A stretch of DNA of 11,624 bases from the sequence record NC_001609.1. One strand, written 5' to 3'. Positions within the stretch are counted from its first letter, which is position 1. The number at the start of each line of letters is the position of its first letter. A program made the position numbers and the translations under genes. This document shows, one piece after another, positions 7,305-9,132 of the stretch. The DNA comes from Enterobacteria phage P4. The notes beneath the pieces were generated by a model. The model ran no database searches and had not been told where the DNA came from. It was given only the letters and a program-made list of their open reading frames with translations.

Positions 7305-7439
7305 TTGCTTTTCTCCCTGTGACAGATGACTGCATTCCGTGCCGGTTGCATTAACTGATAAGGCATATCTGCGTCTCCTGAAGACGTGCGTATCCCTGCG
7401 CGAATACGCACATTTAATTTTTCGGGGGTCGTTTTTTAA

Positions 7440-7895
7440 TTACAGATAATTGCGGTAACTGTTATCCGGGGTGGTTTCCGGGTCAGGCTCCGTGCGGGGA
7501 ATTTCCCGCCATTCCCGCGCCACCGGTGCTGCCCGGCTGACCGGAACAGTGTCCTGCGGGTAAATATCCAGATATTTTTCCCGCCATTTCTGTAATTCCG
7601 GGTCTCCGGCCATTTCTTTCAGTACCGCATGCCGGTTTACGGGGCTGCGTTTAAACAGGTCAGGACGGTCACAGGTAAATTCCCGCAGAAAACGCCCCAG
7701 CGGGATGTCTGTGGTGCGTCCGTCAGCGAGGATACGCACAAGGATACTGAATTTACGGCGGTACGGGTTCCAGACAATGTCCGGGCAGCGGTACGGCATT
7801 TCCCACGGAATACCGTCTTCCAGAATGCCGACCACGGCCACATCGGGAAAACCGGCAGAACGGTAAATCTCACCGGGCTGGGGAAAATCAAACAT
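7440..7895 (-). CDS. orf151, conserved P4 protein of unknown function
   Basis: 151-aa ORF; the ATG at 7895-7893 lies 2 nt after the stop of the upstream ORF. Size matches the P4 ORF known by this name. Confidence 0.7.
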   Translation of the reverse strand: MFDFPQPGEIYRSAGFPDVAVVGILEDGIPWEMPYRCPDIVWNPYRRKFSILVRILADGRTTDIPLGRFLREFTCDRPDLFKRSPVNRHAVLKEMAGDPELQKWREKYLDIYPQDTVPVSRAAPVAREWREIPRTEPDPETTPDNSYRNYL

Positions 7896-8175
7896 GCGTC
7901 CTGTCTCCCCGGTCTTTCTGCTGGGCGAGAAAATCGCGGCACAGGCCTTTGGCTTTCAGCTCATTCAGCACAAAATCAATATCTTCATTCAGGTAGCTGA
8001 AAATATGTGGAATGTAGAGCTGATGCAGGCCGGAGAGTTCACGGTGAATCAAATCACCCCCAACAAACCGGGATACGGCGCTGGCGCGGTTGAGCTTATG
8101 GTAAGCCTCAATGCTGAGGTGTTCACGGGCGTCATGACGCGCTGAGACGGTCTGAGGGGCTTTTTTATTACGCAC
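7888..8175 (-). CDS. eps: Epsilon, candidate antirepressor that derepresses the helper prophage (95 aa if GTG start)
   Basis: C-terminal part of the 7888..8460 reading frame. A GTG at 8175-8173 is preceded by GGAGG with 6-nt spacing and overlaps the kil stop by 8 nt, giving 95 aa. The alternative ATG at 8220 (110 aa) would overlap kil extensively. Identity from position between kil and orf151. Confidence 0.5.
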
Positions 8176-8365
8176 GGGACACCTCCACCACCGGCAGACG
8201 GGCAGCAAGGGAGAGCACATAGTCACGGACAAGGGAACGGCGGGCACTGCGTTCATCACCGGCGACGGTGCGAAGCATACAGATACGGGGATGACGGTCT
8301 GCGCGACGGACAGCCGCAAACACAAAGACAAATTCAGGGTGTGAGGGGGTAAGGGTTGTAGCCAT
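8168..8365 (-). CDS. kil: Kil, first translated gene of the early leftward operon (65 aa)
   Basis: Last 65 codons of the 8168..8812 frame ([12 protein letters not shown]...EVSRA). ATG at 8365-8363 is preceded by AGGAGG with about 8-nt spacing; the upstream part of the frame lacks an SD and covers the untranslated leader. Name and size from recalled P4 literature. Confidence 0.5.
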
Positions 8366-8419
8366 GATGGCAGCCTCCTGTGAATAGCAAATAACGCTAT
8401 CGCCGGAGTTCTCACGCTC

Positions 8420-8505
8420 GATGGCGATAGCCCAGACGGGGGTGAGAATACCGGCTTCACAGGATACCGGCCAGCCCGGAGGCTGCCCCGCCTGAGCTAC
8501 CATTG
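8420..8505 (-). ncRNA. cI: Candidate cI immunity RNA region (approximate)
   Basis: Untranslated leader between the predicted PLE and kil. Contains a segment (plus-strand GGGGGTGAGAATACC, 8437-8451) complementary to a 10-mer direct repeat GTTCTCACGC found upstream (8660-8669) and downstream (8408-8417), matching the seqA/seqB/seqC logic of P4 immunity. Boundaries are approximate and from memory. Confidence 0.3.
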
Positions 8506-8689
8506 ACTCTGCGGCATAATGAGCGGACGCGGGCAGGATGCACGGAATGCCATCTGCACGACTGACCACACACCACACCATAATCTGGCGCTCTGTGGCA
8601 TTGATTGCGACACAAAAAAAGACGCGTGGCGCGTCATATGTCGCCTGTGAATTGCTCGGGTTCTCACGCCCGGCTGCCGATTTTGCGGC

Positions 8690-8729
8690 AGGCGAAAAAC
8701 TATATCCGCAAATGCCGGAAAAAGGCAAG
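8690..8729 (-). promoter_or_regulatory. Candidate early leftward promoter PLE (sigma70-like)
   Basis: On the minus strand, TTGCCT (-35, plus 8729-8724), about 18-nt spacer, TATAGT (-10, plus 8704-8699); predicted start near 8690. Lies just downstream of the vis stop. Confidence 0.3.
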
Positions 8730-8763
8730 CCAGAAAAAGGGAGTTTTTGCAGAGCGGGCATCA

Positions 8764-9030
8764 TCATGCGTCGTACCCCCGTTTGCGTCCGGCAATGCGT
8801 CCGGCCATCCATGCGGTGACTTCAGAGTGCAGCCAGGCCACATTTTTACCGCCAAGACTCACCTGCGGCGGAAATTCCCCCTTACGGATGAGTTCGTAGA
8901 TGGTCGAGCGTGACAGGCCGCACAGGTGCATCACTTCCGGCACACGTAAAAAACGCTCCTGCGTGATGTCCGGCAGCGGCATCAGTGGCGTCACTGGGGC
9001 GGGAGACGGGGAAGAAAAAACAGCTTGCAT
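8764..9030 (-). CDS. vis: Vis, AlpA/Xis-like helix-turn-helix regulator and excision factor (orf88)
   Basis: 88-aa ORF with ATG at 9030 and GAGG SD 7 nt upstream. Contains the AlpA-family HTH ...[30 protein letters not shown].... First gene downstream of the late leftward promoter. Confidence 0.8.
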
Positions 9031-9132
9031 CGGGCTACCTCGTTAATGTCCATACAGCACCGGATAAGTCCGTCCGGCTTCGGGTAGCGCTTTATTTTGT
9101 GAATATTTTCAGCAGACGCAACAGGGGGGATT

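Follow-up and report, generated by a model that had tools for sequence, protein, structure and literature searches.

The immI region of bacteriophages P1 and P7 is organized around an antisense RNA of the C4 family, with upstream targets of this RNA, the RNA itself, a downstream target lying over the ribosome-binding site of an Icd-family reading frame, and then an anti-repressor gene. The P1 record gives the order as targets a1 and b1, c4, targets a2 and b2, icd and ant1, with a 4-nt overlap between icd and ant1, and icd is recorded as "apparently required for expression of ant" (P1 record; PMC8201110). The secondary immunity locus of N15 and PY54 encodes a Kil-like protein, gp32, and in N15 gene 32 (Icd-like), gene 31 and gene 30 (Ant) follow one another as a chain of stop/start overlaps. 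In Gifsy-1 of Salmonella, the isrK-orf45-anrP region begins with an IsrK/SeqA-type leader RNA, followed by a small ORF that overlaps an anti-repressor-like gene, and the translational coupling of orf45 and anrP at an AUGA overlap has been shown by mutagenesis (PMC4825925). In P4, the CI RNA pairs with the seqA and seqC sequences, which leads to premature termination of the transcripts from the PLE promoter (PMC4825925). The Kil protein, which kills the cell, is a truncated Eta; Eta in its full length is made only from an upstream late promoter, and its translation is coupled to the alpA homologue and prevents termination (PMC10111431, summarising Forti et al. 1999). The product of the epsilon gene, which lies immediately downstream, acts by binding the P2 C repressor, so that the helper is derepressed (PMC2995052, citing Liu et al. 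1997 and 1998). Here, we focus on the junction between kil and epsilon, including the position of the epsilon start codon, the relation of the module to those of other phages, and the possible coupling of epsilon translation to that of kil. The DNA analyzed (the window) has 11,624 bases and is the whole P4 genome.

Gene Organization of the kil-Epsilon Segment

The window from 7400 to 9100 is 100% identical to GenBank X02534, "Bacteriophage P4 essential region". The genes orf88, eta/kil, epsilon and orf151 all lie on the minus strand and form one overlapping chain, with overlaps of 4 nt (orf88/eta), 8 nt (kil/epsilon) and 8 nt (epsilon/orf151) (Table 1). The kil-epsilon segment is part of the P4 left (early) operon, and a 571-bp stretch around the junction is present over at least 80% of its length in 986 of 5,426 complete E. 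coli genomes.

Table 1. Coordinates of genes, RNA elements and signals around the kil-epsilon junction in the P4 window.
Feature	Position	Strand	Remarks
orf88, AlpA/Vis-like helix-turn-helix gene	8764..9030	-	TGA 8766..8764 overlaps eta ATG (ATGA)
eta, 199 codons	8168..8767	-	Frame and stop common to kil; PGAP 600-nt CDS, Pfam, NF033153
PLE-like sigma-70 promoter (TTGCCT, 18 nt, TATAGT), inside eta	8699..8728	-	X02534 has a -10 feature
Leader RNA element with seqA	8615..8705	-	Rfam isrK and c4-a1b1; terminator-like hairpin at end
CI immunity RNA, Rfam C4 family, within eta reading frame	8420..8507	-	74.9 bits, gathering score 45
seqC, downstream CI target	8369..8415	-	Complementary blocks over kil Shine-Dalgarno
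kil Shine-Dalgarno AGGAGG	8374..8379	-	ATG 8 nt further on
kil, 65 codons, Icd-like domain protein	8168..8365	-	NF033153 76.1 bits, E=1.6e-21
rut-like C-rich, G-poor mRNA stretch	8285..8414	-	C/G 1.8-2.0
Epsilon Shine-Dalgarno GGAGG, in last kil codons (GAG GTG)	8182..8186	-	GTG 6 nt further on
kil/epsilon overlap GTGCGTAA	8168..8175	-	Epsilon start codon, 2 nt, kil stop codon
Epsilon, 95 codons, GTG start, P2 repressor C anti-repressor	7888..8175	-	X02534, PGAP, PF25738
Epsilon/orf151 overlap ATGTTTGA	7888..7895	-	orf151 start codon, 2 nt, epsilon stop codon
orf151, next gene of left operon	7440..7895	-	ORF and annotation

The kil ORF runs from ATG 8365..8363 to TAA 8170..8168, so that the original prediction of a 65-codon kil with a strong AGGAGG Shine-Dalgarno (SD) sequence holds; a Kil size of 65 aa, in agreement with this ORF, is also said to have been given by Forti and colleagues in 1999. 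Residues 12-59 of Kil match the NCBIfam model NF033153, "phage_ICD_like" (48 positions, cut-off 25 bits), to which P1 Icd (52.6 bits), N15 gp32 (64.6 bits) and PY54 Icd (73.4 bits) also belong. Kil is 50% identical to N15 gp32 over 54 aa; a direct BLASTP comparison of Kil with P1 Icd gave no alignment, and this relation holds only through the NCBIfam model.

The kil gene is nested in frame within eta (199 aa), with which it shares its TAA, and eta can be translated only from transcripts that start upstream of PLE. Eta matches the Pfam family Phage_ASH (E=4e-16) over a span that includes the stretch encoding the CI RNA, and its residues 146-193 match NF033153. A 214-aa ORF in this frame had been taken for a largely artefactual extension over the leader; since it contains eta, with kil nested within, it is mostly a real gene, which from ATG 8767 is PGAP-annotated and carries the Phage_ASH and Icd-like matches. 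In the P4-like prophage L008, PGAP places an HTH gene, then, with a 4-nt overlap, a 600-nt "host cell division inhibitor Icd-like protein" that corresponds to window 8767..8168, namely eta, followed by a 288-nt "derepression protein" with an 8-nt overlap both with the Icd-like gene and with the orf151 homologue. At 8168..8581, in the kil frame, X02534 lists a "put. ash gene (aa 1-137)" instead of kil/eta, an entry that is now obsolete. The ORF in this frame should be annotated as eta with a nested kil, and neither as "ash" nor as an artefact.

Epsilon extends from GTG 8175..8173 to TGA 7890..7888. It aligns with the "Derepression protein family" of Pfam (PF25738) at 170 bits (cut-off 27; E=9e-51), with residues 1-95 on positions 1-95 of 95, and the X02534 feature "epsilon gene (aa 1-95)" coincides exactly with its coordinates. 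The gene names kil and epsilon given from the sequence were right, and the comparison with the annotated epsilon that had been suggested as a check yields 95 aa and a GTG start in both X02534 and PGAP. Of the description of a kil stop overlapping a GTG start, the 8-nt overlap of the two ORFs, the preceding GGAGG and the 95-codon frame stand; the start and stop codons themselves do not overlap, as 2 nt separate the GTG from the kil TAA downstream. The statement that epsilon ends 2 nt before orf151 was wrong, because the TGA follows the orf151 ATG (7895..7893) by 2 nt, which creates the second 8-nt overlap.

These boundaries of kil and epsilon are, in our judgment, virtually certain. The arrangement is already known and ordinary: the existing annotations of P4 (Lin 1984, X02534; Forti et al. 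1999 for kil/eta; RefSeq PGAP) have the same epsilon and kil/eta stop coordinates as those found here, the coordinates dating from 1984 and 1999, and none of the three states a coupling of epsilon to kil.

Conservation of the Junction among P4-Like Elements

Scans of genomes, IMG/VR and metagenomes provided 163 loci with a recognizable junction and an intact epsilon. The scan of genome contigs with a single protein contributed only six loci, and the diversity comes from the IMG/VR and metagenome scans. Most of the 163 loci are near-identical E. coli elements and are not independent, so that the diverged lineages and the TGA variants described below carry the weight. The start codon of epsilon is GTG in 151 loci and ATG in 12, of which two (L153 and L171) fall within the P4 clade. 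The SD sequence is GGAGG in 148 loci and GGGGG in 15, and the kil/epsilon overlap is 8 nt long in 162 loci and 11 nt in one.

Five diverged lineages, from Serratia (L005), Buttiauxella (L006), Rahnella (L007) and IMG/VR (L090 and L091), encode proteins with 63-70% identity and have ATG at the position of the P4 GTG. All five keep GGAGG 6 nt upstream, and the stop codon of the upstream frame still overlaps, by ATGCATAA or ATGCCTAA, with the 11-nt overlap in L005. Conservation across relatives is what gives the layout its weight, as the SD-plus-GTG motif alone is not significant: GGAGG-N6-GTG occurs once in the window against 0.32 occurrences expected, and at least once in 56 of 200 shuffled sequences.

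Related Modules in Other Phages and Elements

The kil-epsilon module represents the P1-type c4-icd-anti-repressor cassette in its P4 form. In P1, as in P4, the stop codon of the Icd-family ORF overlaps the start of the anti-repressor gene, although P1 has a 4-nt overlap (ATGA) and an ATG start where P4 has 8 nt and GTG. The P1 Ant1 protein (347 aa) is unrelated to epsilon (95 aa, PF25738) and has no Pfam family in common with it; homology of epsilon to P1 Ant was not found, and in Pfam epsilon matches only PF25738. Unlike in P1, the target of epsilon is the repressor of a different phage (P2 C), and the Icd-like ORF is also the C-terminus of the longer Eta. Because its payload differs from that of P1, the P4 module is a variant and not an orthologue of immI.

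The Kil-like gp32 of N15/PY54 shares a C-terminal ARxPVxEV tail that carries the SD sequence, and its overlap chain resembles that of P4; the N15 overlaps are 4 nt (ATGA), however, with a 76-aa gene between the Icd-like gene and Ant and no epsilon homologue. Gifsy-1 resembles P4 in its leader RNA and in the ORF overlapping an anti-repressor-like gene, but its RNA activates translation rather than repressing it, and its overlap is AUGA. Three P4-like prophages without epsilon have an Icd-like gene, an ATGA overlap and then unrelated genes of 73-78 aa, and their DNA similarity to P4 ends at about 8180, just after the SD sequence. An SD sequence of the GAGG(TG) type is present in the tail of the Icd-like gene in these three elements, as well as in P1 icd/ant1 and N15 g32/g31/g30. 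The payloads found after the Icd-like ORF comprise epsilon, the 73-78-aa family, P1 Ant and N15 gp31. A resemblance of epsilon to the 73-78-aa proteins, seen by eye in a "(E)QLDGVV / EDIDFVL" motif, was unsupported by BLASTP or Pfam and was rejected.

The CI RNA and the kil Ribosome-Binding Site

The Rfam C4 antisense RNA model (RF01695) identifies the P4 CI RNA within eta, and the isrK (8615..8692, 60.8 bits) and c4-a1b1 matches correspond to the seqA leader. Two blocks of the leader, GUGAGAA (8667..8661) and UUCACAGG (8651..8644), are complementary to the CI RNA, and represent an upstream repeat, at 8667..8644, of elements of the CI target. Downstream, seqC consists of GUGAGAA (8415..8409), UUCACAGGA (8384..8376) and GGAGGCUGCC (8378..8369), which together cover the kil SD sequence. 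The CI segment GGCAGCCUCC is complementary to GGAGGCUGCC, and UCCUGUGAA to UUCACAGGA, giving perfect complementarity of 10 bp and 9 bp over AGGAGG.

The CI loop and its seqC target change together among related elements, where four specificity types, or lineages, can be distinguished. The loop of the CI RNA and the sequence next to the kil SD are CUUCGAG with CUCGAAG in L090, CGGUUUCCAAUAAG with CUUAUUGGAGAUUG in L091, where the pairing reaches 14 bp, and CAUAGUUA with UAACUAUG in L006. This covariation of loop and target is evidence that the kil ribosome-binding site is the regulated point. In addition, the first part of the kil mRNA has the composition expected for a Rho entry site, and the C-rich stretch listed in Table 1 may be where Rho enters at timm, the published Rho-dependent terminator.

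Possible Translational Coupling of Epsilon to kil

The explanation that best accounts for the locus as a whole, and one that we consider probable, combines a nested kil/eta, an overlapping epsilon with a GTG start, and gating by the CI RNA through the kil ribosome-binding site. Pairing of the CI RNA with seqA and seqC causes the PLE transcripts to end prematurely, and translation of the kil/eta frame prevents this termination, so that synthesis of epsilon would require ribosomes translating the upstream frame. These ribosomes may act in two ways, one of which is to keep Rho off the mRNA. In the second, probable route, ribosomes ending at TAA 8168 re-initiate 5-8 nt back, at GTG 8175, with the help of the embedded GGAGG, and the amount of epsilon made would then depend on kil/eta translation at the translational level as well. 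In this way, one RNA contact, at the kil ribosome-binding site, may gate the anti-repressor, as in P1 c4-icd-ant.

Translational coupling itself is plausible, and by analogy with the P1 and Gifsy-1 modules, with which it fits as it does with the conserved overlap, we lean slightly towards it. A layout of the coupling type, GGAGG-N6-GTG-CG-TAA, with the SD sequence inside the upstream ORF, is present and conserved in the 163 loci. Experiments on the coupling of epsilon to kil in P4 were not found in the papers covered here, in which Forti 1999 and Liu 1997 enter through PMC10111431 and PMC2995052.

The main alternative is that epsilon initiates independently at GGAGG-N6-GTG, that the overlap reflects genome compaction, and that the dependence on kil/eta is purely transcriptional, through Rho polarity. 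The epsilon site could initiate alone, because its GGAGG is a strong SD sequence, close to the consensus and ideally spaced. Epsilon is functional when a foreign (rhamnose) promoter drives it (PMC12239096), and therefore coupling is not needed for its activity. RNA folding agrees with this alternative in that a structure specifically masking the epsilon SD did not emerge from the fold and shuffle tests. The junction is not unusually structured (z=+1.12), and RNAalifold predicts a 7-bp stem with almost no covariation. A small conserved hairpin, CGUCUGCC/GGAGGUG, contains the epsilon SD, which is mostly paired in the predicted ensembles (probability of being unpaired 0.01-0.27), though not beyond shuffled contexts. 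A dedicated hairpin masking this SD is not supported, since the SD is hidden no more than in 150 dinucleotide shuffles in any of six lineages. Independent initiation leaves aside, however, that the 8-nt length of the overlap is kept in all but one of the loci, and that a stop/start overlap occurs in every Icd-like module examined, even where the downstream gene is unrelated. The start in the P4 clade is the weaker GTG, the SD sequence is only GGGGG in 15 loci, and in the homologous modules of Gifsy-1 and P1 coupling has been demonstrated or inferred. In view of these points, we regard purely independent initiation as possible but rather doubtful.

A stronger, joint reading is that epsilon depends strictly on finished kil/eta translation and that the Icd-like tail is a conserved "socket" for payload genes. 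We put this forward tentatively, as having somewhat less than an even chance of being correct in both parts.

The Epsilon Start Codon and Alternative Reading Frames

True start positions in this region had been thought impossible to fix from sequence alone, a view that no longer holds once the related sequences of the 163 loci are compared: the epsilon start is GTG 8175, as firmly as sequence can establish it. In 23 of the 163 loci, all with epsilon intact, the position equivalent to 8188 has changed from G to A, which gives an in-frame TGA four codons ahead of the start, and because of this stop codon a start upstream of 8175 is impossible in these loci. The 95 positions of the Pfam "Derepression" profile are matched end to end from 8175, and within the 190-aa ORF the match begins at residue 97.

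The distribution of variable sites over codon positions, given below as counts at positions 1/2/3, points to the same boundary. Among the 71 unique sequences of the P4 clade, variable sites in 8365..8176 are distributed 7/2/18 in the kil frame (p=6e-4), which is 2/18/7 in the epsilon frame, and those in 8167..7896 are distributed 4/3/15 on epsilon codon positions (p=0.002). Between 8220 and 8176, comparisons of diverged lineages with P4 give kil-frame counts of 0/1/7, 3/1/7, 1/0/5 and 0/0/5, mostly at kil third positions, which are second positions in the epsilon frame. At the junction, the kil-frame substitution pattern thus gives way to an epsilon-frame pattern. Within the overlap, the final codon of kil shows synonymous variation (GCG/GCA/GCC/GCT) at a base whose changes alter residue 2 of epsilon (R/H/P/L).

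These data bear directly on the proposal that epsilon starts at ATG 8220, which would give a protein of 110 aa overlapping the last 17 codons of kil. P4 and the Serratia locus L005 have this ATG in frame, but it is missing in L006, L090 and L091, and 32 of the 163 loci lack it overall; in the Rahnella locus L007, the epsilon frame is closed 18 codons upstream and has no start codon. The TGA of the 23 loci lies between ATG 8220 and 8175, substitutions in 8220..8176 hit second positions of the ATG 8220 frame, the Pfam profile begins at 8175, and the ATG itself is a by-product of the kil codons TAT GTG. The TGA variants, the loss of the ATG in relatives and the codon-position patterns rule out ATG 8220 as the epsilon start, and we consider it extremely improbable.

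The other frames yield no additional gene that we find credible, and the chance that the 190-aa ORF (8460..7888) or a plus-strand ORF of 83 aa (7894..8145) is one is negligible. The epsilon frame is open for about 107 codons upstream in P4, L005, L090 and L091, but in other lineages it closes after 4, 18 or 69 codons, the 190-aa ORF is without a family match upstream of residue 97, and its second positions are the most variable (the 2/18/7 above). The original prediction of the 190-aa ORF as a spurious upstream extension is therefore borne out by the substitutions upstream of 8175, which fall on its second codon positions. Programmed frameshifting at the overlap to join Kil and epsilon, to which an A6 run just after the overlap and an in-frame kil-epsilon fusion that arose by deletion in one metagenome contig (L105) might lend some color, was ruled out for want of a plausible site and has next to no likelihood, as inspection of the sequence shows that a +1 shift would be required at GCG-TAA, where tRNA re-pairing is poor, the last kil codon shows the synonymous variation given above, and its surroundings are not kept as a shift site.

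Significance of the kil-Epsilon Arrangement

The arrangement matters little for discovery, and is useful for annotation and engineering. GTG 8175 can be trusted as the epsilon start in annotation. Designs of P4 cosmids or transducing particles that edit epsilon have to consider that kil/eta contains the SD sequence and first 8 nt of this gene, and orf151 its last 8 nt. If the "socket" reading is true, unrelated payload genes would have been exchanged among satellites and phages at the SD-bearing tail of the Icd-like gene. If the dependence of epsilon on the upstream frame is strict, the CI RNA would control the anti-repressor translationally as well as transcriptionally through one contact at the kil ribosome-binding site. 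Coupling, if true, would mean that a textbook immunity switch under RNA control also has a translational layer, and would extend the icd-ant logic of P1 to satellites.

Coding Overlap and Variation around kil and epsilon

The eta frame carries a match to the Pfam family Phage_ASH (Bro-network), spanning residues 21–84 of the older 137-aa 'ash' ORF, and because this match directly overlies the gene for the CI RNA, the same stretch of DNA codes for a protein domain as well as for a structured regulatory RNA, a double use that has already been pointed out (PMC10111431). The frame of epsilon is open upstream of its own start, remaining stop-free for about 107 codons (window 8176..8460, minus strand) in P4, in the Serratia locus L005 and in the two IMG/VR loci L090 and L091. 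A coding signature is absent from this upstream extension, and its openness is probably a side effect of the kil/eta codon usage and the G+C content.

At the epsilon Shine–Dalgarno sequence, a common natural variant, found in 23 related loci, changes window 8182..8188 from GGTGGTGGAGG to GGTGATGG[A/G]GG. Its effect on Kil is the replacement of V60 by M, while the Shine–Dalgarno sequence of epsilon is weakened to GGGGG in 15 of the 23 loci, and epsilon itself is intact in those carrying the variant. In another IMG/VR locus (L088), an A7 run takes the place of the A6 run directly after the kil stop, at epsilon codons 3–5, and shifts the epsilon frame; this could reflect a homopolymer sequencing error or slippage. 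The metagenome contig OHRK01000498.1 (L105) shows an in-frame joining of kil and epsilon by a deletion, which lies ~75 nt before position 183 of the locus and takes out the epsilon Shine–Dalgarno sequence, the GTG start and the kil stop. The joined ORF could be a natural Kil–epsilon fusion, or else an assembly error.

Genes in the Place of epsilon and Possible Exchange of Immunity Specificity

In three epsilon-less P4-like prophages, genes for proteins of 73–78 aa occupy the position of epsilon and overlap the stop of the Icd-like gene through ATGA. Their products have the motif EQLDGVV in common and belong to no Pfam family, and BLASTP finds no resemblance between them and epsilon. These small proteins are candidate anti-repressors of an alternative kind.

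Location of the Phage_ASH match and of the genes in the place of epsilon
Feature	Coordinates	Strand	Basis
Phage_ASH match over CI RNA gene	window 8420..8581	minus	Pfam and CI RNA position
73–78-aa protein gene, prophage L009	1747-1974		
73–78-aa protein gene, prophage L010	1734-1955		
73–78-aa protein gene, prophage L011	1755-1991		

The seqC leader directly upstream of kil (window 8366..8420, minus strand) is variable at 46 of its 55 positions among the P4-clade loci L002–L089, even though kil and epsilon are otherwise 97–99% identical in these same loci. Pairings between the CI loop and seqC are of at least four kinds among the relatives. Such a variable leader beside near-identical genes suggests a mosaic exchange of immunity specificity.
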